Sequence record: MT150133.1
Length of the DNA: 64,000 bases
Reading direction: 5' to 3' (one strand)
Source: Enterobacteria phage vB_EcoM_IME540
The notes beneath the pieces are model-generated. The model did no database searches. It had not been told where the DNA came from and saw nothing but the letters and a program-made list of their open reading frames with translations. The stretch's first letter is position 1, and each line of letters begins with the position of its first letter. The position numbers and the translations under genes were made by a program. Shown here piece after piece: positions 1,553 to 55,984 of this stretch.

Positions 1553-2241
1553 TACCAGCCCTCCATAGGGAATTCCAGATATACTTGAGCATTAACGCGG
1601 ATTTCATTAGTAATCTTTTTAACTCGGTCGGTATTACGAGACACACGACCAAACCAGCGCCAACCGTTACTTACTGCACGAGAACCTGTATGCCATGTCT
1701 GCCAATCAAACTGGAGCAACGTGCGGTCGGGGGCATCCCACTTGGTTAATTCATTAGACTCAATTTTTTCCAGAACTTCTTTATGCCACTGGCGATAGAT
1801 AAGTTCGCCTTCAGGAATCTGACTGAATTGTGCAGTTCCGGTTGCAAAATGAGTAGGACACACATCAGCGTTAACAAGACCAAGAATATGTTCAGAATGG
1901 TATCGAGGATTATCATAATCAGGTTGCCCTGCGGTAATAAAGTGTTGACCCACCGGAATATCCGGGCGTGGTACATCATCATGGTGGAAGCCTGGAATTG
2001 CAGGGTACCAGCCAGGCATTAACATGTGTACACGGGAATCAAATACAATATCAGGGCCACATTGCCAATCTTCAGGCAGGTTTTCAATAAAGCTACGAGT
2101 AATAGGACCGCCATGTTTATGAGCAAAATAAGCATCGCAATTAAAGAACATAGGCTCATTTTTAATCATATCATTACTGATATCTTGAGCAAAACCACCT
2201 ACTGCACGAGCTTTAGAATTAAAAATTTTTGGACCGTTCAT
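1552..2241 (-). CDS. hypothetical protein, 229 aa
   Basis: Long ORF in operon context; His/Asp-rich segment PGFHHDDVPRPD...HSEH could be a metal site; no family recognised. Confidence 0.6.
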   Translation of the reverse strand: MNGPKIFNSKARAVGGFAQDISNDMIKNEPMFFNCDAYFAHKHGGPITRSFIENLPEDWQCGPDIVFDSRVHMLMPGWYPAIPGFHHDDVPRPDIPVGQHFITAGQPDYDNPRYHSEHILGLVNADVCPTHFATGTAQFSQIPEGELIYRQWHKEVLEKIESNELTKWDAPDRTLLQFDWQTWHTGSRAVSNGWRWFGRVSRNTDRVKKITNEIRVNAQVYLEFPMEGW

Positions 2242-2255
2242 AATATTTTCCTCAC

Positions 2256-2468
2256 TTACTTTTTGTTGAAAAAGTACATTTTACCTTTAGGGGATAAGGA
2301 TACACGAAGTGCGTTACCAATACCAACTGAACATTTAACCAGGTCAGCAGATTTCAATTCACCAAATGCTTGACGAAGGTCACCGTCACGAGTGTTAACC
2401 ATCAGGCATTTAGCACCAGCTGCACGAACTTCGTTTAACATGTTGATTGCTTGGTTAGAAAGTTTCAT
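2256..2468 (-). CDS. hypothetical protein, 70 aa
   Basis: Start moved to internal ATG 2468-2466 with RBS GGAG (leader ...GGAGAATAAA-ATG) directly downstream of an early promoter cassette. Confidence 0.5.
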   Translation of the reverse strand: MKLSNQAINMLNEVRAAGAKCLMVNTRDGDLRQAFGELKSADLVKCSVGIGNALRVSLSPKGKMYFFNKK

Positions 2469-2505
2469 TTTATTCTCCATTTCACTCTGTTGTTTTGATA
2501 GGTCT

Positions 2506-2534
2506 ATAGTATCACACCTATAGACCTTGTACAC
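2506..2534 (-). promoter_or_regulatory. sigma70-type early promoter cassette (-35 GTGTAC, 17-bp spacer, -10 TACTAT) with 10-bp inverted repeat AGGTCTATAG/CTATAGACCT
   Basis: Minus strand ...GTGTACAAGGTCTATAGGTGTGATACTATAGACCTATCAAAACAACAGAGTGAAATGGAGAATAAA-ATG. Confidence 0.55.
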
Positions 2535-2546
2535 TGTTTTGTGCAA

Positions 2547-3506
2547 TTATTTTTCGAAAGGACGAATTAAATGTTGGTTACGCTTAAACCGTTCAATGTA
2601 GTCGTTTTCACCTAAAGTCTTGTACATATTAACCACAGCTTGGTAGTTTTCCCATGCATAAGTGCGGAACCAACCTGAAGTGATTGAGGTGCACACTTTC
2701 TCAAGGGCCATATAGAAACTTAATGATGGTGAAATATTGAAGTCATTAGGAACCTGTGAACGTTCTAGTGCCAGGACACAAGTTTCTTCATACACACCAG
2801 CCAGTTTAATAGCTTCAGGCAAAGCCTCGAACTTCTCACGAGAGGTCATGACTTCAGAACCTTCCTTCATATAAAAGGTATATGCAGGGCGCCCTGCCAA
2901 TGCCACTGCTTCATGGATAGAGTCGTGGTCCAGAGTATAAATGGGATCATTAAAGAACGATGATTTGTTTACATCCAATTTAGGGTGGGAATAGCTCAAC
3001 GTTTCTTTTTGACGTTGCAACATAATTTCCTGGAGTTCTTCGTTAAGGGTGATACCTTTATTACGAAGGTATTTGATGTGGGACATGGTTTTCAAGAAGA
3101 ACGGATTATTCTTCAAGAAACGATGGGAGGTTTTGATAGCCAGACAGATATCAGGGGTTGCCCAATAGAAACCTGTAAGACGGTCCTTTTTAATATGATT
3201 TTCGGCATATTTCAGGAGACGATAACTTGAGGTGAAATCTTCGTCTTGAAGCTCACCGGTAATTTCTCGTACGTTAGTCAGGGCACGAACGATATAAGCT
3301 TCAAAATAGGTTTCTTTACCATTGTACATGCATTTAAAAGCCTGGACATCAGGGTTATCCACAGGAACATGGGCACCAAACATCCGAGCTTTAAAGTGAT
3401 TCCATGAGCCTTGGTCGGCAATGAAATCCCAATCAGAATTTTCGATATGCTTACTTTCAATCAGACCAGCGTGGTGCAGTGCACGAGAACCAATAACTAA
3501 CATCAT
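2547..3506 (-). CDS. hypothetical protein, 319 aa; possible Pol-beta-type nucleotidyltransferase-like motif
   Basis: Start at ATG 3506-3504 with RBS GAGGAAA; N-terminal IGSRALHHAGLIESKHIENSDWDFIAD loosely resembles the hG[GS]...DxD signature. Confidence 0.6.
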   Translation of the reverse strand: MMLVIGSRALHHAGLIESKHIENSDWDFIADQGSWNHFKARMFGAHVPVDNPDVQAFKCMYNGKETYFEAYIVRALTNVREITGELQDEDFTSSYRLLKYAENHIKKDRLTGFYWATPDICLAIKTSHRFLKNNPFFLKTMSHIKYLRNKGITLNEELQEIMLQRQKETLSYSHPKLDVNKSSFFNDPIYTLDHDSIHEAVALAGRPAYTFYMKEGSEVMTSREKFEALPEAIKLAGVYEETCVLALERSQVPNDFNISPSLSFYMALEKVCTSITSGWFRTYAWENYQAVVNMYKTLGENDYIERFKRNQHLIRPFEK

Positions 3507-3525
3507 AATATTTTCCTCAGTAAAC

Positions 3526-3765
3526 TTAAATTTCAGCGACGTAATCGTTATGCAATTCCCACATATCATCAGAATTATTCTTAATGATAGGAATTATCTC
3601 ATTAGAGATTTCTTCAGCATAAGGGTCATTGATACAGTGGGCATCTTCAAAACGAACACCGTAATCAGACTTCTTATAAGAGAAGCCATAAATCTTTTTA
3701 AACTTGGCGCGAGTAATGCGTACCGGTTCATTAGACTTATCGGACATCGGAGCGTAATACCACAT
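3526..3765 (-). CDS. hypothetical protein, 79 aa
   Basis: ATG 3765 preceded by RBS GAGGAG in conserved leader ACACAAACATGAGGAGAACAT. Confidence 0.55.
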   Translation of the reverse strand: MWYYAPMSDKSNEPVRITRAKFKKIYGFSYKKSDYGVRFEDAHCINDPYAEEISNEIIPIIKNNSDDMWELHNDYVAEI

Positions 3766-3792
3766 ATGTTCTCCTCATGTTTGTGTAGGGTA

Positions 3793-3821
3793 ATAGTAAC
3801 ATGATTTTCTAGAGTTGTACA
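3793..3821 (-). promoter_or_regulatory. early promoter (-35 TGTACA, -10 TACTAT) with conserved leader
   Basis: Minus strand TGTACAACTCTAGAAAATCATGTTACTATTACCCTACACAAACATGAGGAGAACAT-ATG; leader near-identical to the one at 62501-62557. Confidence 0.45.
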
Positions 3822-4138
3822 TCACTTCTGCAATATTCTAAAAATAATTTATCATTGTCTACTGTATCCCAACGACGCCAAGACGGGTTCCAGACCAAAG
3901 CGTTGTCACCACAATCATTGAGCTTAAAATGGTCGTAGTACATAGCTATGTGTCTAGTCTCGTCACCAGAGAACCCCAGTATAGGCTCACCGTGGGTGTG
4001 ATACATATGATGGTGCATTGAGAGGTCGCATTTGTAAAACATCTCACGTTTACCACGAACGAACAAGAAGGCCTGTCCATTCATATAGAATTCTTTATTT
4101 GTTTTCAAAAGATATTTGAATACTGAATCTTTATGCAT
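3809..4138 (-). CDS. hypothetical protein, 109 aa, His-rich (MHHHMYHTHGE)
   Basis: Start at internal ATG 4138-4136 with strong RBS AGGAGGA. Confidence 0.5.
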   Translation of the reverse strand: MHKDSVFKYLLKTNKEFYMNGQAFLFVRGKREMFYKCDLSMHHHMYHTHGEPILGFSGDETRHIAMYYDHFKLNDCGDNALVWNPSWRRWDTVDNDKLFLEYCRSDVQL

Positions 4139-4168
4139 AAGTCCTCCTACCACATCCATGTGGTTAAA

Positions 4169-4396
4169 TTATTTTCCTAACGAAATACGAGTAGGTTTTT
4201 TACCGAAATAGTCTTCATAAGAACCATCTAAACGACCTGCTTTAGACCGACAATATGAATCGTACTTTTTGTAATAAGTCATCTCAGTATTATAACGCGG
4301 GTGTCTATCAGCCATAATAATACTTAACGGCCAACCTTTGGCATAATCGCGAAGACCATTTATTTTACGAATGTATCTTTTCTTTAATTTTAGCAT
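4169..4396 (-). CDS. possible small basic protein, 75 aa
   Basis: ORF only; no convincing RBS at either candidate ATG. Confidence 0.3.
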   Translation of the reverse strand: MLKLKKRYIRKINGLRDYAKGWPLSIIMADRHPRYNTEMTYYKKYDSYCRSKAGRLDGSYEDYFGKKPTRISLGK

Positions 4397-4614
4397 GAGC
4401 TCGGATACCAGATTTTACCATCGGCCTGAGCAACGAAGGTGCGTCCAGCTTCTTCACCATAACAAGAGCTATTCAGCCAATCTTCGAGACGAACTTCACC
4501 GTCATAATCGTCGAGCTCAACACCAAAACTTTGAGCAGAAGCCATATCTTTTACTTTCTTATACAGTGCAGCCAGTTCAAGTGCGGCTTTTTCTAATTCA
4601 TTAATATCAGTCAT
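4390..4614 (-). CDS. small acidic protein, 74 aa, member 1 of a four-gene paralog array (C-terminus WYPSSC)
   Basis: Start at internal ATG 4614-4612 with RBS AAGGTGA; shares N-terminal MTDINELEK and C-terminal W-x-SS-x-C pattern with neighbours. Confidence 0.55.
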   Translation of the reverse strand: MTDINELEKAALELAALYKKVKDMASAQSFGVELDDYDGEVRLEDWLNSSCYGEEAGRTFVAQADGKIWYPSSC

Positions 4615-4624
4615 TTTTATCACC

Positions 4625-4837
4625 TTAGCAAGACATAGAGGATGTAAACCAGAAACCTTCACCATCTGGGATACCGTAATCATCACGGGCCCATTCATAA
4701 TCATCATATTCCGGATTCTTTGGAGAAATGTATTGTCCACGACCAGAAACATGGAACTCTTCACCCGTTTCGTCAGCCACGGCCTGGCCTTTACGTACTA
4801 ATTCGCGGATTTGTTTTTCAATTTCATCAATAGTCAT
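4625..4837 (-). CDS. small acidic protein, 70 aa, paralog 2 (C-terminus WFTSSMSC)
   Basis: RBS AAGGAAA upstream of ATG 4837; N-terminal MTIDEIEK. Confidence 0.55.
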   Translation of the reverse strand: MTIDEIEKQIRELVRKGQAVADETGEEFHVSGRGQYISPKNPEYDDYEWARDDYGIPDGEGFWFTSSMSC

Positions 4838-4846
4838 TTTATTTCC

Positions 4847-5128
4847 TTAACATTCAGAAGAAGAGGACACCCAACCGCCATTTTCTAGGCTGGTGGTGTA
4901 ATCATGCTGGTTTACAATAGCATACTGGGCTTCACCGTATTCTTCCCAGTGGGCAAGGTCGGCTTTCAAGGCGCCAGGAGAATAATAGTCACCGCCCATA
5001 CCGCGAGCAGGGTATATATTAAAATGAGTCTCATATTTGTTAGCAATTTCCTCGGCACGACGAATAGCTTTATGGATATCATTTACTGCGTCAGCCAGCT
5101 CTTTATTTTTACGGTAATCATTCATCAT
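4847..5128 (-). CDS. small acidic protein, 93 aa, paralog 3 (C-terminus WVSSSSEC)
   Basis: RBS AAGGAAA upstream of ATG 5128. Confidence 0.55.
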   Translation of the reverse strand: MMNDYRKNKELADAVNDIHKAIRRAEEIANKYETHFNIYPARGMGGDYYSPGALKADLAHWEEYGEAQYAIVNQHDYTTSLENGGWVSSSSEC

Positions 5129-5137
5129 AGCGTTTCC

Positions 5138-5428
5138 TTAGCACATTGCCGAAGAGGAGACCCAAGCACCAACTGTAACGACACCGTTTTCAACTTCACC
5201 GCCATTGTTTTCAATTTCATCTTTAAACCATTGGGAGCATTCATAACCGACAGGATAATATGTACGGCCTGAACCATAACCACCGGTACTGAATTCAATA
5301 CCATATTCATCTGCGATTTCTTCACATTTGGATTCGATGGTGCCTACTTTACCCAGCAGGTCATAGATAGCCTTTTCTGCGGACAGCGCGCTGTTGTATT
5401 CAGGGATTTCAATTTCAATTTTATTCAT
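5138..5428 (-). CDS. small acidic protein, 96 aa, paralog 4 (C-terminus WVSSSAMC)
   Basis: RBS AAGGAA upstream; start overlaps stop of upstream gene. Confidence 0.55.
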   Translation of the reverse strand: MNKIEIEIPEYNSALSAEKAIYDLLGKVGTIESKCEEIADEYGIEFSTGGYGSGRTYYPVGYECSQWFKDEIENNGGEVENGVVTVGAWVSSSAMC

Positions 5429-5778
5429 GATTTACATTCCTTAATAAAGGTTTCAAGGTCATTACGTTTAGTTTGTTTTACATACTCATTATAATTAACC
5501 ATAGCTAAAGCATATCTCTTTTTACGCGGCTTGTTTATTTTATTAGTTTGGGCAATATCAAAGACCCATGGGATAAAAAATCCTATTAAAGCCGGAACCC
5601 AAATCCATGCAAGGCTCATATCTTCAAACGGATGGCGAGGCATACCATTAATAATCCCACCGACAAGAAATCCAATTATCCCTGCAGTCATACTAGTAGC
5701 AATGCCGAGGAATAAGGAAATAGCTATATCATAATCTGCTAATGCGTAACCAGGGTCGGTTTTACTAGGCTTATGCAT
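5425..5778 (-). CDS. hypothetical membrane protein, 117 aa, with C-terminal ...NDLETFIKECKS tail
   Basis: Start at internal ATG 5778-5776; two hydrophobic helices (IAISLFLGIATSMTAGIIGFLVGGII; AWIWVPALIGFFIPWVF). Confidence 0.55.
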   Translation of the reverse strand: MHKPSKTDPGYALADYDIAISLFLGIATSMTAGIIGFLVGGIINGMPRHPFEDMSLAWIWVPALIGFFIPWVFDIAQTNKINKPRKKRYALAMVNYNEYVKQTKRNDLETFIKECKS

Positions 5779-6307
5779 TTTGAACCTCTTTAGCGTATTC
5801 GCGACATTCAGTAATAAAACGATTAAGTTTACGTTGTTGTTTACGAATCTCTGATGTATACTCATTGGCTAAAATAATAAGCTCATCTTTATCGTAATTT
5901 TTAATATCCGAATAACTCGGGCGGCGGTCGACCATACCAAAGTGGTCACCATTTTCTAACATCAAATAGCATACTAAATGGTAATCATCGTCGGCATCAA
6001 CAAGCTGTTTATAATCGCTTGGTTCATTTAAAGAGTATACTGAATAGCGTAGCCCAGCGAATTCCACTCGTTGAATAGCCAGATTTACGTCAATAATTTC
6101 TAAAGCATCTGCAAAAGAAAGGTCCTCAGCTAAAGCAAAGATAAAGGGTAATTTGGTAGTATGCCCACGGCTAGATGTTCTGCTTAAGAAATCGTTTGAA
6201 TAACCTAGGTCTTGGCGAATTCTATAAAGAACTGCATTAGTTTCATGTGAAAGACCACTATGTTTAAACCAATCAATATTTGATATCAGGTCGTCGTATA
6301 AACTCAT
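5771..6307 (-). CDS. hypothetical protein, 178 aa, with C-terminal IRKQQRKLNRFITECREY module
   Basis: ORF with RBS GGAGGAGAGGAG upstream of ATG 6307. Confidence 0.6.
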   Translation of the reverse strand: MSLYDDLISNIDWFKHSGLSHETNAVLYRIRQDLGYSNDFLSRTSSRGHTTKLPFIFALAEDLSFADALEIIDVNLAIQRVEFAGLRYSVYSLNEPSDYKQLVDADDDYHLVCYLMLENGDHFGMVDRRPSYSDIKNYDKDELIILANEYTSEIRKQQRKLNRFITECREYAKEVQNA

Positions 6308-6330: not shown

Positions 6331-6348
6331 GGGAGACCGAAGTCTCCC
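6331..6348. terminator. stem-loop GGGAGAC-CGAA-GTCTCCC
   Basis: Perfect 7-bp stem with tetraloop between two minus-strand genes; same stem sequence recurs at 46366-46383. Confidence 0.45.
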
Positions 6349-6355
6349 GGTAACA

Positions 6356-6949
6356 TTACTTAAGTGAATTAATGTAGTCTTCGATATCAGCAGAAGTCGT
6401 ATCCATTCCAACTTGCGGGCCTTTAAACGTTTCTACGCGCATCAGGGTGTCTTCGATATCAATCTTGGTCAGTGCAGCAATTTCAACAACATCGTCGGCA
6501 GTAGCAATACCAAGGGCAGCCATATTACGAGTTTCACGGATGTACTCGAGCTTAACAGCCAGTTCCTGACGAGAGTCATCAAGTTCCTTAACCTTCAGTT
6601 TAATTTCATTACGCATTTCGATATAATCATCGGCTTTCTTACGAAGCTGAGTAGCTGTACGACGATAAAGGAGACCGAGTTTAGCATGTACCTGGACATC
6701 AGAGCCTTCGGCAATCAGTTTACGAATTTCACGTTCTTTAGAAGCAGCGAGCTGGTCTTTTTCATTAGCCAAAGCACGAATACGTTTTTCTTCATTCACA
6801 GACTTAACATGAGCAGTCTGGAGTTCAGTGATTTTATCAATCAGAGTAGAAGCAGCTTTGGTGTATTGGTCTTCGATTGACAGGTTCTGAGCCATTGCGG
6901 TGCCCAGTTTAGAACGAATGAATTCAACGATTTTCTTTAAAGTGTTCAT
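6356..6949 (-). CDS. PspA/IM30 (phage-shock protein A / Vipp1)-like coiled-coil protein, 197 aa
   Basis: Start at ATG 6949-6947 with RBS GAAGGAAA; heptad-rich sequence with segments resembling PspA ([13 protein letters not shown] vs RALAEKKQL; [18 protein letters not shown] vs ELENKLSETRARQQAL), from memory. Confidence 0.5.
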
Positions 6950-7025
6950 AGTATTTCCTTCAGTTGGTTGATATTTTGTAATCCATGAGGACATTATACC
7001 CTGTCCTCTGAGGTTTGTAAACATT

Positions 7026-7746: not shown

Positions 7747-7781
7747 TTTACTCTCCTTCACTCTGTTGTTTTGATAGGTCT

Positions 7782-7810
7782 ATAGTATCATGTTTAAAGG
7801 AGGTGTAAAC
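7782..7810 (-). promoter_or_regulatory. early promoter cassette (-35 GTTTAC, 17 bp, -10 TACTAT)
   Basis: Minus strand GTTTACACCTCCTTTAAACATGATACTATAGACCTATCAAAACAACAGAGTGAAGGAGAGTAAA-ATG. Confidence 0.55.
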
Positions 7811-10903: not shown

Positions 10904-10939
10904 TTTATTCTCCAATCACTCATTTGTTTTGATAGGGCT

Positions 10940-10969
10940 ATAGTACCATCACTAAAGCCCGTTGTAAAC
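10940..10969 (-). promoter_or_regulatory. early promoter cassette (-35 GTTTAC, -10 TACTAT) with inverted repeat GGGCTATAG/CTAAAGCCC
   Basis: Minus strand GTTTACAACGGGCTTTAGTGATGGTACTATAGCCCTATCAAAACAAATGAGTGATTGGAGAATAAA-ATG. Confidence 0.55.
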
Positions 10970-11245: not shown

Positions 11246-11470
11246 TTATTCAGCGCCAGCAGCTTTCAAAAGTTTTTTAAGATTGGCTATGCCGCCAGCA
11301 GAAAACGTGACCTTGCCACCTTTTTCATTGATAGAGCCAGTCAATTTAGCAAGCTTATCACTAGGGACTTTTTTAAAATCAGCCAGTGTGCCATCAAAGG
11401 TTTTTGTAACAATTGGCAGTTCATCTTCATGTCTTTTAGCTTCGGTGATAAATTCTTGATAAGTTTTCAT
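11246..11470 (-). CDS. internal-protein-like, 74 aa, with N-terminal capsid-targeting sequence MKTYQEFITEA
   Basis: Capsid-targeting-type N-terminus; early promoter cassette upstream. Confidence 0.65.
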   Translation of the reverse strand: MKTYQEFITEAKRHEDELPIVTKTFDGTLADFKKVPSDKLAKLTGSINEKGGKVTFSAGGIANLKKLLKAAGAE

Positions 11471-11507
11471 TTTGATTTCCGTTTGGTTAGTTTGTTTTGA
11501 TAGGTCT

Positions 11508-11536
11508 ATAGTATCATGCCTATAGACCTTGTAAAC
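11508..11536 (-). promoter_or_regulatory. early promoter cassette (-35 GTTTAC, 17 bp, -10 TACTAT) with 10-bp inverted repeat AGGTCTATAG/CTATAGACCT
   Basis: Minus strand GTTTACAAGGTCTATAGGCATGATACTATAGACCTATCAAAACAAACTAACCAAACGGAAATCAAA-ATG. Confidence 0.55.
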
Positions 11537-14958: not shown

Positions 14959-14966
14959 TATAAATA
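14959..14966 (+). promoter_or_regulatory. late promoter TATAAATA for gene 53
   Basis: Exact T4 late consensus 28 nt upstream of ATG 14994. Confidence 0.6.
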
Positions 14967-14973
14967 TTAATAT

Positions 14974-14981
14974 TATTTATA
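14974..14981 (-). promoter_or_regulatory. late promoter TATAAATA for gene 4 (divergent)
   Basis: Exact consensus on minus strand upstream of gene 4 start at 14948. Confidence 0.6.
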
Positions 14982-44789: not shown

Positions 44790-46349
44790 ATGAAAAAGAA
44801 TGCATTAGTTCAAAAATGGTCCGCTCTGCTGGAAAACGAAGCCCTTCCTGAAATCGTGGGTGCTTCTAAACAAGCTATCATTGCTAAAATTTTCGAAAAC
44901 CAGGAACAAGATATTCTGACCGCTCCTGAATACCGTGACGAAAAAATCTCCGAAGCATTTGGTTCTTTCCTGACCGAAGCTGAAATTGGCGGTGACCACG
45001 GTTATGATGCTACCAATATCGCAGCTGGCCAGACTTCTGGTGCTGTAACTCAGATTGGGCCGGCAGTAATGGGTATGGTTCGTCGTGCTATTCCTCATCT
45101 GATTGCTTTTGATATTTGTGGTGTTCAGCCTCTGAATAACCCTACCGGCCAGGTATTTGCCCTTCGTGCAGTTTATGGTAAAGACCCTATCGCTGCTGGC
45201 GCTAAAGAAGCTTTCCATCCGATGTATTCTCCGGACGCTATGTTCTCTGGTCAGGGCGCTGCTGAAACTTTCGAAGCACTGGCTGCAAGCAAAGTTCTGG
45301 AAGTTGGTAAAATTTATTCTCACTTCTTCGAAGCTACCGGTGCTGCACACTTCCAGGCTGTTGAAGCCGTAACCGTTGATGCTGCTGCTACTGATGCCGC
45401 TAAACTGGATGCTGCTATTACCGCTTTGATTGAAGCTGGTAAGTTGGCTGAATTGGCTGAAGGTATGGCTACTTCTATCGCTGAACTTCAGGAAGGCTTT
45501 AACGGTTCCCAGGACAACCCGTGGAACGAAATGGGCTTCCGCATCGACAAACAAGTTATCGAAGCTAAATCCCGTCAGCTGAAAGCAAGCTATTCTATCG
45601 AACTGGCACAGGACCTTCGTGCAGTACACGGTATGGATGCAGATGCTGAACTGTCCGGTATCCTTGCTACCGAAATTATGCTCGAAATCAACCGTGAAGT
45701 TATCGATTGGATTAACTACTCTGCACAGGTTGGTAAATCTGGTATGACCAACACCGTTGGCGCTAAAGCTGGTGTGTTTGACTTCCAGGACCCGATTGAT
45801 ATCCGTGGTGCTCGTTGGGCCGGTGAGAGCTTTAAAGCCCTTCTGTTCCAGATTGATAAAGAAGCAGCCGAAATCGCTCGTCAGACCGGTCGTGGTGCTG
45901 GTAACTTCATCATCGCTTCCCGTAACGTAGTTAACGTACTGGCTGCAGTTGATACTTCTGTAAGTTATGCAGCTCAAGGTCTGGGTCAAGGTTTCAACGT
46001 TGACACAACCAAAGCAGTATTTGCCGGTGTTCTTGGTGGTAAATATCGCGTTTACATCGACCAGTATGCACGTTCCGATTACTTCACCATCGGTTATAAA
46101 GGCGCTAACGAAATGGACGCAGGTATCTACTATGCTCCGTACGTTGCACTGACCCCGCTGCGTGGTTCCGATCCGAAGAACTTCCAACCGGTAATGGGCT
46201 TCAAAACTCGTTACGGTATCGGTATCAACCCGTTCGCTGACCCGTCTGCACAGGCTCCTACCAAACGTATTCAGAGCGGTATGCCTGACATCGTTAACAG
46301 CCTTGGTCTGAATGGTTACTTCCGTCGCGTATATGTTAAAGGTATCTAA
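44790..46349 (+). CDS. 23: major capsid protein gp23
   Basis: 519 aa; extensive match to T4 gp23. Confidence 0.95.
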   Translation: MKKNALVQKWSALLENEALPEIVGASKQAIIAKIFENQEQDILTAPEYRDEKISEAFGSFLTEAEIGGDHGYDATNIAAGQTSGAVTQIGPAVMGMVRRAIPHLIAFDICGVQPLNNPTGQVFALRAVYGKDPIAAGAKEAFHPMYSPDAMFSGQGAAETFEALAASKVLEVGKIYSHFFEATGAAHFQAVEAVTVDAAATDAAKLDAAITALIEAGKLAELAEGMATSIAELQEGFNGSQDNPWNEMGFRIDKQVIEAKSRQLKASYSIELAQDLRAVHGMDADAELSGILATEIMLEINREVIDWINYSAQVGKSGMTNTVGAKAGVFDFQDPIDIRGARWAGESFKALLFQIDKEAAEIARQTGRGAGNFIIASRNVVNVLAAVDTSVSYAAQGLGQGFNVDTTKAVFAGVLGGKYRVYIDQYARSDYFTIGYKGANEMDAGIYYAPYVALTPLRGSDPKNFQPVMGFKTRYGIGINPFADPSAQAPTKRIQSGMPDIVNSLGLNGYFRRVYVKGI

Positions 46350-46365
46350 GATATAACCTTATTAT

Positions 46366-46383
46366 GGGAGACTTCGGTCTCCC
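46366..46383. terminator. stem-loop GGGAGAC-TTCG-GTCTCCC after gene 23
   Basis: Perfect 7-bp stem with UUCG-type loop followed by T-rich sequence; same stem as at 6331-6348. Confidence 0.6.
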
Positions 46384-46398
46384 ATTCTTGTTTCTGTA

Positions 46399-46665
46399 TT
46401 ATGCAATCTTAACTCGGCGGTTGATGATATCACGGAAGTCAATACGATTTTCTTGGATTTTCAGCCAGTTACCAGATTTGTCTTTGGTATGGGTAGAGTA
46501 TTCACCGTTCCACCAGAAGTCGGTAGCATAAGCCATGGCTTCGTATTTCTTAACTAAGGCATTCACTGCATTACCATTAGGATTGTTACCGAATTTTTCT
46601 ACCAGAGCTTTGATGTCTTTATCAAGAGCGGAAAGAGTAGTACGAATAAAGTTTAACTTGTTCAT
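46399..46665 (-). CDS. hypothetical protein, 88 aa, on the opposite strand between genes 23 and 24
   Basis: Start at ATG 46665-46663 with RBS GAGGAG; own early promoter cassette upstream. Confidence 0.5.
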   Translation of the reverse strand: MNKLNFIRTTLSALDKDIKALVEKFGNNPNGNAVNALVKKYEAMAYATDFWWNGEYSTHTKDKSGNWLKIQENRIDFRDIINRRVKIA

Positions 46666-46694
46666 TTTTAATCTCCTCATGTTTTGATAGGTCT

Positions 46695-46724
46695 ATAGTA
46701 ACATGTGAGAATCTTGCTGTAAAC
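46695..46724 (-). promoter_or_regulatory. early promoter cassette (-35 GTTTAC, 18 bp, -10 TACTAT)
   Basis: Minus strand GTTTACAGCAAGATTCTCACATGTTACTATAGACCTATCAAAACATGAGGAGATTAAAA-ATG. Confidence 0.5.
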
Positions 46725-46730
46725 AACTTT

Positions 46731-46738
46731 TATAAATA
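46731..46738 (+). promoter_or_regulatory. late promoter TATAAATA for gene 24
   Basis: Exact consensus 29 nt upstream of ATG 46767, back-to-back with the minus-strand early promoter. Confidence 0.6.
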
Positions 46739-46766
46739 AACATATACCCTCAATAAGGAAAGCGCA

Positions 46767-48050
46767 ATGGCAAAGATTAACGAATTACTGCGCGAGTCAA
46801 CAACTACTTCCAGCAACTCATTGGGTCGCCCTAATCTTGTTGCTTTGACCCGTGCTACAACCAAATTGATTTACCGTGATATTATCGCCGAACAACGTAC
46901 TAGCCAGCCTATTGCTGCACTGTATGGTGTCAAATATCTTACCCCTGATAATGAATTTAGTTTCCAGACAGGTGCCTCTTATGGTGGTGAAGTTGGTTCT
47001 AAAGACCGTGAAACTATCCCAGAACTCACAGATAAGGCCCAGGCGATTGCTCAGGGTGAATATTTCAAGTACCAGAATGTGGTTTATAAGGCTCTTAAAG
47101 CAAGCCCACTCGCGTCCACTAGCGCCACAGAATTGGCTGATGCTCTTCAAGAAGGTTTAGTGTCATTAACATGTCGTCTGGTTCCTGATGCTGCCCATAC
47201 CACTAAATTTGAAGCGAGTGATGTAGAAATCTCTGATGCTGTATTCCAGGTTAATAAATGGAATGCTCCGGTTAAGACCCGTAAATTGAAGACGGCTTTG
47301 ACTGTAGAATTAGCGCAGGATATGGAATCAAATGGCTTTGACGCGCCGGCGTTCTTAGAAGACCTCTTGGCTACAGTAATGGCAGATGAAATTAATAAAG
47401 ACGTTCTGCAATCTCTAATAACCGTATCCAAACGTTATAAAGTTACTGGTGTATCTGATAACGGCATCATCGATTTGTCTTATGACAGTGCTCCTGAATC
47501 TGCACGTAAACTTTATGAACTCGTTTGTGAGATGAATTCTGAAATCCAGAAAACTACTTCTTATTCTGGCACGTTTGTTGTGGCTTCAAGTCGTGTGGCT
47601 GCAATGCTTGCAGGTTCTGGCTGGTTAAAACATAAACCCGAAGATAATAATTGGCTTCCGGAAACTGCATACGGATATTTGTTGAATGGTCTGCCTCTGT
47701 TTTGTGACGTTAACAGTCCATTAGATTATGTTACCGTTGGTGTTAAAGAGAATTACGGCGGTAATGAAGTTGTCGGTTCTATTTTCTACGCTCCCTATAC
47801 CGAAGGCTTAGATTTAGATGACCAAGAACACGTCGGTGCTTATAAGGTTATTGTTGACCCGGATTCATTACAACCTTCTATTTCTCTGATGGTTCGTTAT
47901 GCACTATCAGCTAACCCGTACACCGTGGCTAAAGACGATAAAGAAGCTCGTGTTATCGATGCAACCAATATGGATTTAATGGCTGGACAGAGCAATATGT
48001 CTTATCTGGTTGGCGTTAAACTTCCGGCAATTATTTACGAGGCTGATTAA
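46767..48050 (+). CDS. 24: head vertex protein gp24
   Basis: 427 aa MAKINELLRESTTTSSNSLGRPNLVALTRATTKLIYRD..., matches T4 gp24. Confidence 0.9.
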   Translation: MAKINELLRESTTTSSNSLGRPNLVALTRATTKLIYRDIIAEQRTSQPIAALYGVKYLTPDNEFSFQTGASYGGEVGSKDRETIPELTDKAQAIAQGEYFKYQNVVYKALKASPLASTSATELADALQEGLVSLTCRLVPDAAHTTKFEASDVEISDAVFQVNKWNAPVKTRKLKTALTVELAQDMESNGFDAPAFLEDLLATVMADEINKDVLQSLITVSKRYKVTGVSDNGIIDLSYDSAPESARKLYELVCEMNSEIQKTTSYSGTFVVASSRVAAMLAGSGWLKHKPEDNNWLPETAYGYLLNGLPLFCDVNSPLDYVTVGVKENYGGNEVVGSIFYAPYTEGLDLDDQEHVGAYKVIVDPDSLQPSISLMVRYALSANPYTVAKDDKEARVIDATNMDLMAGQSNMSYLVGVKLPAIIYEAD

Positions 48051-49330
48051 TGTCTAAGATTGTAGACCTAATTAAAGAATCCACATTGACGGCTGCCAGC
48101 TCGGTTGGCCGTCCTGCTCTTCTTTCATACACCCAAGCAACTAATAAACGAATCTTTAAAGCCCTAGTTGCTGAACAAAAAACAAATCAACCGGTTGCTG
48201 CTCTGTATGGGGTACGTGTACTGAATCCTGACGACAAAATGACTTATCTTGGTGGAGCAACATTTGCGGGCCAGATTGGTATGACGGAACGTGAAAATAT
48301 TCCAGAATTTACTGATTCATCTACAGCTTATGCGGTCGGTGATATGTTCCAGTTTGAAAGCGTAGTGTTTAAAGTTCTAGAAGCATCTCCTTTCGCCGGA
48401 ACCACAGAAACCAACCTCAGCGAAGTTATTTCTGAAGCAGTGGCAGCCGGCCATATCCGTATGGCGTCGGATGCTGCTATTACTTCTAAATTTGAACAAG
48501 GCCATCCTGAAATTGCTGAAACCGGATTCCGTATCGACAAATGGCAATCTGAAGTTAAATCGCGTAAACTGAAAACTTCATTGACAGTCGAATTAGCCCA
48601 AGACCTAGAATCTAACGGGTTTAATGCTCCTAATTTCGTTGAAAATCTGCTAGGCATTCAAATGGCAGAAGAAATTAATAAGGATGTATTACAGTCATTA
48701 ATTACCGTGAGCTCTCGTTTTAAAGTCCAGGGTGTTTCTGAAAAGGGTGTATTAGACCTTACCAACCCTCGCTACGATAATGCCCAGGACCGTGCTCGCA
48801 CATTATATTATTATATGTGTGAGATGAACTCTGCCGTCCAACGACAGACTTCTTTTGCCGGGACTTATGCAGTAGCTAGTTCTCGTTGTGCTGCTATTCT
48901 CGCCGCCTCTGGTTGGGTTGAGAAAAAGGAAGACCAGGACGAATTGGCTTATGGTATATTAAAGAATGGCCTACCACTTTATGCTGATATGAATAGTCCA
49001 TGTGATTATGTTATTGTTGGTGTAAATGCCCAGATGGGTGAAGGACAGACGGTCGCATCTTTATATTATGCGCCTTATACGGAAGGTTTGAATGTGGTTG
49101 ACGAAGAAGGTGATACTTCAGTTGGTGAATTTAAGGTTATTGTTGACCCGGAAAGCTTACAACCTACAGTAGCATTGCTTGCTCGTTATGCATTGACTGC
49201 AAACCCTTATACCGTCGCTAAGGACGATAAAGAAGCCCGCATTATTGATGGTTCTGATATGGACAAAATGGCTAATCAAAGTCAATTGAGTTCTTATCTC
49301 GGCGTAAAATTACCGCCTTTAGAAAAATAA
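48050..49330 (+). CDS. second gp24-family head vertex paralog
   Basis: 426 aa MSKIVDLIKESTLTAASSVGRPALLSYTQATNKRIFKALVAEQKTNQP...; collinear with the upstream gp24 at roughly half of positions identical by eye; TAATG-coupled. Confidence 0.85.
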   Translation: MSKIVDLIKESTLTAASSVGRPALLSYTQATNKRIFKALVAEQKTNQPVAALYGVRVLNPDDKMTYLGGATFAGQIGMTERENIPEFTDSSTAYAVGDMFQFESVVFKVLEASPFAGTTETNLSEVISEAVAAGHIRMASDAAITSKFEQGHPEIAETGFRIDKWQSEVKSRKLKTSLTVELAQDLESNGFNAPNFVENLLGIQMAEEINKDVLQSLITVSSRFKVQGVSEKGVLDLTNPRYDNAQDRARTLYYYMCEMNSAVQRQTSFAGTYAVASSRCAAILAASGWVEKKEDQDELAYGILKNGLPLYADMNSPCDYVIVGVNAQMGEGQTVASLYYAPYTEGLNVVDEEGDTSVGEFKVIVDPESLQPTVALLARYALTANPYTVAKDDKEARIIDGSDMDKMANQSQLSSYLGVKLPPLEK

Positions 49331-49355: not shown

Positions 49356-50363
49356 TTATTTGGATACTAGTTCAATCCATACGGCTCGTAGGGTATCTTT
49401 TACACACTCAACGAGCTGCTTTTTAACTTCAACAGGATTTTCTGCATCAGTTAATTCTAATTCTTCACGGGCAGCTTCTTCTAAGATATCTTGGACTGCC
49501 AAGCCCATTACCTTTCCAAAATCCTTCGGCGATACTTCGCCAATCTTACTGATAACGTTGTTAATACGGTTAACAGTCACATAATCAGTGAATTGCCACA
49601 TCAAATCCATATCGTCTTGGGACAAAACTACAGCCGCCTTAATAGGCTTATCAGACTTTTTCTTCTCGCTGAATTTAGAGTTCTTACATTTAATCGCCAC
49701 GCGATTTCCATTAGGAAGCCAGATAGGAATATCGGGTTTAAGTACAAAGCCTTCAGCCGTGAATACTTTACCTTCTACCTTAGGAATAAAGTCTGTAGAG
49801 TTTGCAATAGTTAGGCCTGCGTTATCAACCGCAAAATTATAATCAGGAATAACTGAATCAAAGTCATTAGGTAATTTAATAAGGTCTTCAAAGCTACCAG
49901 TAGCCAGACATGGCGCGACCTTAAACTTATGGATAATACAGAAGGCTTCCATCAATGTATCGGTTAGAACAGATTCTGAACCATCTTCTTTAGTAACTCG
50001 GATATCGAACACATAAAAGTCTTTATCGCCGTAGTCCACATTCTTCTGGATGCCTGTCCCAGCGAATTCGCCATAAATCTGGTATGACTGATAATTAATC
50101 GATTCAATTAGATGTTGAACTGATTTAATAGAATCAGCGTAGTTCTTAAGTACAATTTCATAACCATAGAAATCTTCAGCAGGGAGGATAGGGCCAGTGC
50201 GCTTGGCGCATGTGACTGCGTCACGTTCTATGATTAAACTAAAGTTGGTTCCATGAATCTTCTCACGTGCTACCCATTCACCACCAGTCAAACCGTTAGT
50301 ACGGAGTTTTTCGATAAACTTACTGTTGTAGTGGTTTTCGAGACTGCTATATTTCTTGAACAT
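49356..50363 (-). CDS. rnlB: RNA ligase 2
   Basis: 335 aa; [20 protein letters not shown]...[10 protein letters not shown] (KxHG adenylation motif)...[22 protein letters not shown], matches T4 Rnl2 nearly residue for residue. Confidence 0.95.
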
Positions 50364-52339: not shown

Positions 52340-52361
52340 TATAAATATAACTATATTTATA
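52340..52361. promoter_or_regulatory. divergent late promoters: TATAAATA on plus (52340-52347, uvsW) and on minus (52354-52361, inh)
   Basis: Two exact consensus boxes back to back in the inh-uvsW intergenic region. Confidence 0.55.
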
Positions 52362-55972: not shown

Positions 55973-55984
55973 TATTTATAAATA
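55973..55984. promoter_or_regulatory. overlapping divergent late promoters TATTTATAAATA (minus box 55973-55980 for gene 26, plus box 55977-55984 for gene 51)
   Basis: Two exact TATAAATA boxes sharing the central TATA. Confidence 0.55.

Follow-up and report, generated by a model that had tools for sequence, protein, structure and literature searches.

The junction between gene 23 and gene 24 of Enterobacteria phage vB_EcoM_IME540 holds a small open reading frame (ORF) on the strand opposite to both head genes, which raises the question of whether this ORF is a genuine gene, from which signals it is expressed and whether it is a resident of the junction or a cassette exchanged between phages. 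The window analysed here (64,000 nucleotides of sequence record MT150133.1) is that of a JS98-like T4-type phage, a Dhakavirus according to the classification given in the JS98, IME08 and AnYang records. Over the interval and its flanking DNA, the window shows 99.1-99.6% identity to Escherichia phages LHE83, PSD2002, Bp7 and QL01, and 96% identity to JS98. Gene 23 (44790-46349, plus strand), which codes for the major capsid protein (Pfam PF07068, E=2.9e-122; 97.7% amino acid identity to JS98 gp23), forms the left flank of the slot, and gene 24a (46767-48050, plus strand), which codes for the vertex protein (PF07068, E=2.9e-98) and takes its name from JS98, forms the right one; the gap between the stop of gene 23 (46349) and the start of gene 24a (46767) is exactly 46350-46766. 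The small ORF lies inside this gap on the minus strand (46399-46665, stop codon included), and beyond gene 24a come gene 24b (48050-49330, plus strand) and rnlB (49356-50363, minus strand), a gene order that agrees with the JS98 annotation. The two tandem gene 24 paralogues (46767-48050 and 48050-49330), annotated as 24a and 24b in JS98, are 55% identical at the amino acid level; this duplication is present in VR7, Q7622 and CF-SP2 and missing in AnYang, PhAPEC2 and T4, and a literature search found no publication on it in JS98. A link between the ORF and the duplication was ruled out, because AnYang and PhAPEC2 carry the ORF with one gp24 copy, and CF-SP2 and Q7622 carry two gp24 copies and no ORF.

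An earlier note, made from the letters of the DNA alone, had described an 88-amino acid minus-strand ORF between genes 23 and 24, and this was confirmed: counted from the ATG at 46665, the reading frame covers 46402-46665 and is followed by a stop codon at 46399-46401. A ribosome-binding site (GAGGAG, 46678-46673, minus strand) can be read from the sequence 7 nt upstream of this ATG, in a leader that is unstructured according to RNA folding (-0.4 kcal/mol). Some GenBank records annotate a 93-amino acid version that starts at an ATG at 46680, but this extension is missing in the homologues of Gaprivervirus and Mosigvirus and lacks a ribosome-binding site, so that 88 amino acids is the better call. 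The product matches the PHROG 6003 profile (phrog_6003, E=6.8e-50) from residue 1 to 88, along profile positions 1-88 of 90, and it belongs to the JS98 orf173c/VR7ORF190c/RB69ORF188c family, whose members are already annotated as 'hypothetical protein'. It is identical (100%) to the copies of Bp7, LHE83 and ABTNLS3 and 97.7% identical to that of JS98, with which the gene shares slot, strand, promoter and hairpin, nothing being different between them. A tblastn search retrieved 233 phage records with a PHROG 6003 gene, nearly all of them from phages with Escherichia or Shigella hosts.

This gene is under purifying selection, with dN/dS values of 0.08-0.12 when compared with JS98, AnYang, IME08 and VR7, although it evolves faster than its neighbours: against VR7, dN is 0.02 for gp23, 0.08 for gp24 and 0.26 for the small ORF, whose dN is overall about 3-10 times that of the neighbouring genes. 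Length and register are kept in homologues down to 27% identity, and an AlphaFold2 model built on a 16-sequence alignment (pLDDT 94.1, pTM 0.79) predicts two helices (residues 3-25 and 31-48), a beta-hairpin (52-61/67-71) and a final helix (77-87). The ORF is thus confirmed as a real gene by its dN/dS of about 0.1, its conserved length and register, the pLDDT of 94.1 and the ribosome-binding site in an unstructured leader. That it might be a chance reading frame in an intergenic spacer is barely conceivable; it is short and matches nothing in Pfam or NCBIfam, as such a frame would, but a chance frame accounts neither for purifying selection nor for a 233-record family of conserved length, a predicted fold with a pLDDT of 94 and the presence of both a ribosome-binding site and a promoter, and conservation of length and register, the AlphaFold2 model and dN/dS effectively refute it already. 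The gene looks dispensable, to judge from truncated forms of the PHROG 6003 gene, which do exist, and from the RB69 reference (NC_004928), in which the copy is broken into two fragments, ORF189c (29 amino acids) and ORF188c (41 amino acids), at 5292-5532 of the extracted locus (L013). Compared with PhAPEC2, the RB69 copy has one +1 and one -1 indel, and its split could mean either that a dispensable gene is decaying or that the old sequence contains an error.

The earlier note had also given this opposite-strand gene an early promoter of its own, a claim that held up well. Motif enrichment revealed a -35 hexamer of the T4 early type (GTTTAC, 46724-46719, minus strand), separated by 18 nt from a -10 hexamer (TACTAT, 46700-46695, minus strand) that is preceded by TG. 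The motif GTTTAC-N17/18-TAnnAT occurs eight times in the window, always on the minus strand (8/8), against 0.59 occurrences expected, and both hexamers of the promoter are kept in Dhaka-, Gapriver- and Mosigvirus, in which the spacer has diverged. The -10 hexamer and the conserved initial transcribed leader that follows it (AGACCTATCAAAACA, 46700-46680, minus strand) make up one of five copies of a 21-mer, TACTATAGACCTATCAAAACA, which comprises the -10 element and the first 15 transcribed bases (2491-2511, 7767-7787, 10925-10945, 11493-11513 and 46680-46700). All five are on the minus strand, four being exact and one having a single mismatch, none would be expected, and a small ORF is found 3' of each. 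In two of these copies (2511 and 11513), CTATAGACCT has its reverse complement in the spacer AGGTCTATAG, so that a stem enclosing the -10 element could form. Another copy of the module drives a homologue of internal virion proteins (11249-11470) that has a true capsid-targeting sequence (MKTYQEFI).

The window promoter shares with those of T4 early genes the GTTTAC -35 and TAnnAT -10 hexamers and an A-rich, UP-like upstream region, and fits the sigma-70 early promoter consensus of T4-type phages (Nolan et al. 2006, PMC1524935); unlike the T4 early genes described there, it lies within a cluster of late genes and is back to back with a late promoter. In the same work, 13 of 57 predicted early promoters of RB69 were found 5' of a novel ORF, as is the case in the window. 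Literature searches found nothing on the early promoters of Dhakavirus and no transcript data on the small ORF, whose putative early timing is based on promoter consensus and conservation. The gene would probably be transcribed by the host sigma-70 RNA polymerase during the first minutes of infection.

The late promoter at this junction is that of gene 24a (TATAAATA, 46731-46738, plus strand), which is found in occupied and empty junctions alike and doubles as the A/T-rich upstream DNA of the divergent early promoter; besides it, only the gene 24 start codon lies upstream of the early promoter. No TATAAATA was found on the minus strand near the small ORF. The two promoters had been proposed to overlap, which is correct for the A/T-rich upstream region of the early promoter but not for the core elements, since TATAAATA is 6 nt away from the early -35 hexamer. 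This back-to-back arrangement is kept in four genera, T4 included, and the two promoters, sharing their A/T-rich DNA, would presumably fire at different times. Closely spaced or overlapping pairs of TATAAATA, divergent and on opposite strands, were also observed at 14959-14981, 52340-52361 and 55973-55984, and these three pairs may be back-to-back late promoters.

On the other side of the ORF there is a hairpin that had been taken as the terminator of the small gene and as one end of its cassette. The hairpin is real, formed by the stem ATGGGAGAC-TTCG-GTCTCCCAT (46364-46385) with a folding energy of -16.3 kcal/mol (z = -4.1), and with the tail TCTTGTTTCT that follows it constitutes the intrinsic terminator of gene 23 (46364-46395, plus strand). 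A terminator scan called it on the plus strand only, where the T-rich tail lies. Read on the minus strand, the hairpin (-14.8 kcal/mol) is followed by a U-poor tail, AAUAAGGUUAUAUC, and an intrinsic terminator for the minus-strand ORF was therefore rejected, as this strand has no U-tract. In the empty junctions of ime09, KPV15, CF-SP2 and Q7622, the UUCG-loop hairpin, the T-rich tail and TATAAATA are all kept, the changes in the stem being compensatory. The hairpin, conserved in empty sites of four genera and with its U-tract on the gene 23 strand, is thus the resident terminator of gene 23 and stands outside the cassette; for the minus-strand transcript, it would be at best a weak stop or a stabiliser of the 3' end. 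A search of Rfam with the interval gave one sub-threshold match, to this hairpin. The 18-nt hairpin, GGGAGACTTCGGTCTCCC, recurs without any mismatch at 6331-6348 (minus strand), with its UUCG loop on the minus strand, between the minus-strand ORFs at 6356-7024 and 5771-6307.

This arrangement of signals would also suit a functional product other than a protein, namely the RNA made early from the minus strand or the promoter as such, acting as antisense into gene 23 or by occluding the late promoter of gene 24 until early shut-off, with the ORF being incidental. Since the hairpin has no U-tract on the minus strand, read-through could plausibly yield RNA antisense to the 3' end of gene 23, and the 6 nt between the early -35 hexamer and the late TATAAATA, in a back-to-back arrangement kept in four genera including T4, point in the same direction. 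Nevertheless, a dN/dS of about 0.1, a frame maintained across alleles that are about 30% identical, a fold predicted with confidence and a strong ribosome-binding site show that the protein itself is selected, and phages with an empty junction manage genes 23 and 24 without such a promoter, all of which makes a purely regulatory role very improbable.

A comparison of the 23-24 junction in relatives, which the earlier note had proposed, showed that it is variable, being found empty, with the ORF, with the ORF and segD, or with segD alone. Empty junctions are those of ime09 (Tequatrovirus), Q7622 (Kanagawavirus), KPV15 (Jiaodavirus) and CF-SP2 (Gelderlandvirus), and the ORF is present between genes 24 and 23, on the opposite strand, in JS98, IME08, AnYang, VR7, PhAPEC2, EP32B and RB69, and also in three metagenomic contigs (L014, L016 and L018). 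In T4 the junction contains segD, in AugustSocin a homing endonuclease, in the LF82 series and AV109 an ORF and a homing endonuclease, and in IME08 the series promoter, ORF, 4 nt, segD and hairpin. The empty site of Q7622 reads ATGGGAGACTTCGGTCTCCCATTCTTGTTTCTGTA|GC|TTTATAAATA, and both of its flanks are identical to those of the window, so that the extra DNA in the window can be delimited to 46399-46728 (minus strand), about 330 bp that are missing from empty junctions and that extend from the stop codon of the ORF to 4 nt beyond the -35 hexamer. The inserted unit thus consists of promoter, ribosome-binding site and ORF only, and the cassette borrows the A/T tract of the late promoter as its upstream region. 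A 12-nt inverted repeat that flanks the cassette (46357-46368/46747-46758, 83%), detected in a repeat search of the interval, was judged to be due to chance.

According to the earlier note, T4 has a homing endonuclease at this junction instead of the small gene. T4 does carry segD there, but the two are not mutually exclusive, since IME08 holds the ORF and segD behind one promoter, and in T4 segD itself lies behind a homologue of the early promoter of the window. The DNA upstream of the endonuclease in T4 (NC_000866, L004, 7233-7323) and in AugustSocin (L009, 3801-3862) aligns column for column with the window promoter, reading TATTTATAAAGTTATTTACA, 18 nt and TATTAT (ATTTAC-18-TATTAT) beside the TATAAATA box of gene 24. 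No segD-specific promoter had been identified according to a 2010 review (Edgell et al. 2010, PMC2988022), and our literature search found nothing on segD transcriptomics. T4 segD and the 88-amino acid gene thus share the slot, the opposite-strand orientation, the downstream hairpin and a homologous upstream promoter region, while their products are unrelated (a 223-amino acid GIY-YIG protein versus 88 amino acids with no nuclease signature) and coexist in tandem in IME08.

This proximity suggests another explanation, in which the ORF would be a passenger or partner of the segD element, for instance a landing-pad or immunity gene that governs cleavage by SegD or its inheritance. In IME08 and the LF82-type phages segD begins 4 nt past the stop codon of the ORF, with promoter and hairpin common to both genes, the T4 segD has a homologous promoter and no ORF, and both ORF and segD are found in exactly one slot and orientation. 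However, segD is missing in all six of the other ORF-bearing reference records opened besides IME08 (6/6) and in the three metagenomic contigs examined (3/3), purifying selection acts on the ORF in lineages that lack segD, and the ORF gives no signal of a nuclease or DNA-binding family. In addition, the SegD proteins of IME08 and T4 are only 56% identical, so that the association with the ORF is neither recent nor tight. A partnership with segD appears, accordingly, improbable.

The small gene had also been regarded as part of a cassette exchanged at a recombination-prone site. It is, however, an old resident of this slot and no recent insertion. Every homologue that was examined for context, including metagenomic copies at 27-57% identity, lies between genes 24 and 23 and in one orientation, indicating that the family is locus-bound and old. 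Two allele types of the ORF, only about 30-40% identical to each other, can be distinguished: type A is present in Dhakavirus, Gaprivervirus and L016, and type B in Mosigvirus, L014 and L018. In a single-gene neighbour-joining tree of gp23, Mosigvirus groups with Tequatrovirus, and Dhaka- and Gaprivervirus group with Kanagawavirus, which has an empty junction; the ORF-bearing genera are, therefore, not monophyletic in this tree.

Exchange at the junction is supported by its variable states and by an allele swap in L014, an uncultured T4-type phage from a metagenome (ERZ27245996 k123_278436, 173 kb; locus at 2121-5386). Its gene 24 is 76-89% identical to the window at the nucleotide level and less so to PhAPEC2 (53-79%); inside the ORF, identity is 30-48% to the window and 62-76% to PhAPEC2, and in gene 23 the similarity to the window returns. 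These identity breakpoints are located at the promoter and at the hairpin, and L014 reads as a mosaic in which a Mosigvirus-type allele is placed between Dhakavirus-like flanks, pointing to allele replacement within a conserved frame. Exchange is clearly shown for L014 only; for Dhaka-, Gapriver- and Mosigvirus, the order in which their ORFs diverge is also compatible with a largely vertical descent at a fast rate. The proposal of a recombination-prone site was thus supported in its substance, but the cassette is narrower than had been supposed, because the hairpin is outside it. The slot is an exchange point among co-infecting phages, and it can be empty or contain either ORF allele, the ORF with segD, or segD alone behind a homologous promoter. 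Exchange would probably proceed by homologous recombination, for which genes 23 and 24 and the conserved frame, made up of promoter region and hairpin, would be the substrates.

A cassette of this kind resembles the association of PeSL and ORFans that has been described in T4-type phages (Arbiol et al. 2010, PMC2839356; Comeau et al. 2014, PMC4122927). The two have in common a small orphan ORF, a sigma-70-like early promoter that is repeated and preceded by A/T-rich DNA, a stable stem-loop at the opposite end and a conserved regulatory frame with a cargo that varies among related phages (empty, type A, type B, ORF with segD, or segD). In contrast to PeSL, there is no stem-loop beside the window promoter; the single hairpin lies past the ORF at a distance of about 310 nt, is already present when the site is empty and has the orientation of the opposite strand. 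The cassette also resides in the conserved head-gene core (genes 23 and 24) instead of a hyperplastic region of non-essential genes. Membership of the PeSL group was rejected, as two of its defining features, the stem-loop beside the promoter and the hyperplastic region, are absent.

With regard to the function of the product, searches of Pfam, NCBIfam and PADLOC, with single sequences and with all 16 family members, returned nothing but noise below threshold, with DUF5380 coming closest (E=0.075; 12.8 bits against a cutoff of 29 bits). A profile search of PDB sequences had a non-specific best match (E=0.026), Foldseek found no match in the PDB with an E-value below 2, and BFVD contained only the family itself. 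An exhaustive HMMER search of 1.84 billion representatives retrieved only a handful of true homologues (87-90 amino acids when full length), the rest being low-complexity matches in long proteins. In the records and papers found, no function is given for the JS98 orf173c family, and a literature search on RB69ORF188c found nothing. A GIY-YIG homing endonuclease was rejected, because the protein has only 88 amino acids, no match in Pfam or NCBIfam and no invariant catalytic residues. The invariant positions of the family alignment are M1, K3, F6, L21, N30, G31, N32, A33, A45, W51 and Q71, with no His, Asp or Cys among them, and, with the exception of the NGNA helix cap, they look mostly structural. 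The protein is basic, with a pI of about 9.6, and all 16 members examined (16/16), of both allele types, have a pI of 9.2-10.1.

A small and basic protein (pI 9.6) encoded between genes 23 and 24 recalls the T4 internal proteins, and could be a head-associated or late protein, either internal or a decoration, especially as the same promoter and leader module precedes the internal virion protein homologue at 11249-11470. On the other hand, it has no late promoter upstream on the minus strand, the gene is missing in many genera that have the same capsid genes, and its N-terminus (MNKLNFIRTT) is not of the MKTYQEFIAE type. A capsid-targeted internal protein like those of T4 was discarded on the basis of this N-terminus, which in the AlphaFold2 model is part of helix 3-25 and integral to the fold. 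A role in the head is, for these reasons, highly improbable. Instead, its size, its charge and the fact that no invariant residue looks catalytic suggest, with low confidence, that the 88-amino acid product is a non-essential, non-enzymatic binding protein. With equally low confidence, the protein could bind a nucleic acid or an acidic partner in Escherichia or Shigella hosts, in which it might participate in host takeover or counter-defence.

The explanation that is likely to account for these results jointly is that of a genuine, conserved accessory gene of T4-type coliphages, probably early, located in an exchange slot and coding, with low confidence, for a binding protein. A bolder version, which is possible but rather doubtful, holds that the 23-24 junction of T-even-type coliphages is a dedicated cargo slot. 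Its fixed regulatory frame would have the gene 23 terminator hairpin at one end and, at the opposite end, the early promoter joined to the late promoter of gene 24, and co-infecting phages would exchange within it a GIY-YIG homing endonuclease and two deeply divergent alleles of a small, basic protein of novel fold. In this version the protein would act in host takeover or counter-defence specifically in Escherichia and Shigella, and its rapid divergence would be driven by an arms race.

As a whole, the accessory cassette is of a kind that is ordinary in phages, and the understanding of T4-type genomes is unchanged by it, given that ORFan cassettes with early promoters have been well described, as have homing endonucleases located at junctions between genes. 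What it provides is nucleotide-level boundaries for one small accessory cassette within the head-gene core of T4-type phages, which is otherwise rigid, together with a case of allele replacement at the 23-24 site, the practical value of which is modest. It also suggests that T4 segD, which had been reported to lack its own promoter, is preceded by a promoter homologous to a conserved early one. Finally, a compact orphan with a confidently predicted fold, found in phages of Escherichia and Shigella, is a reasonable candidate for host-factor or anti-defence screens.
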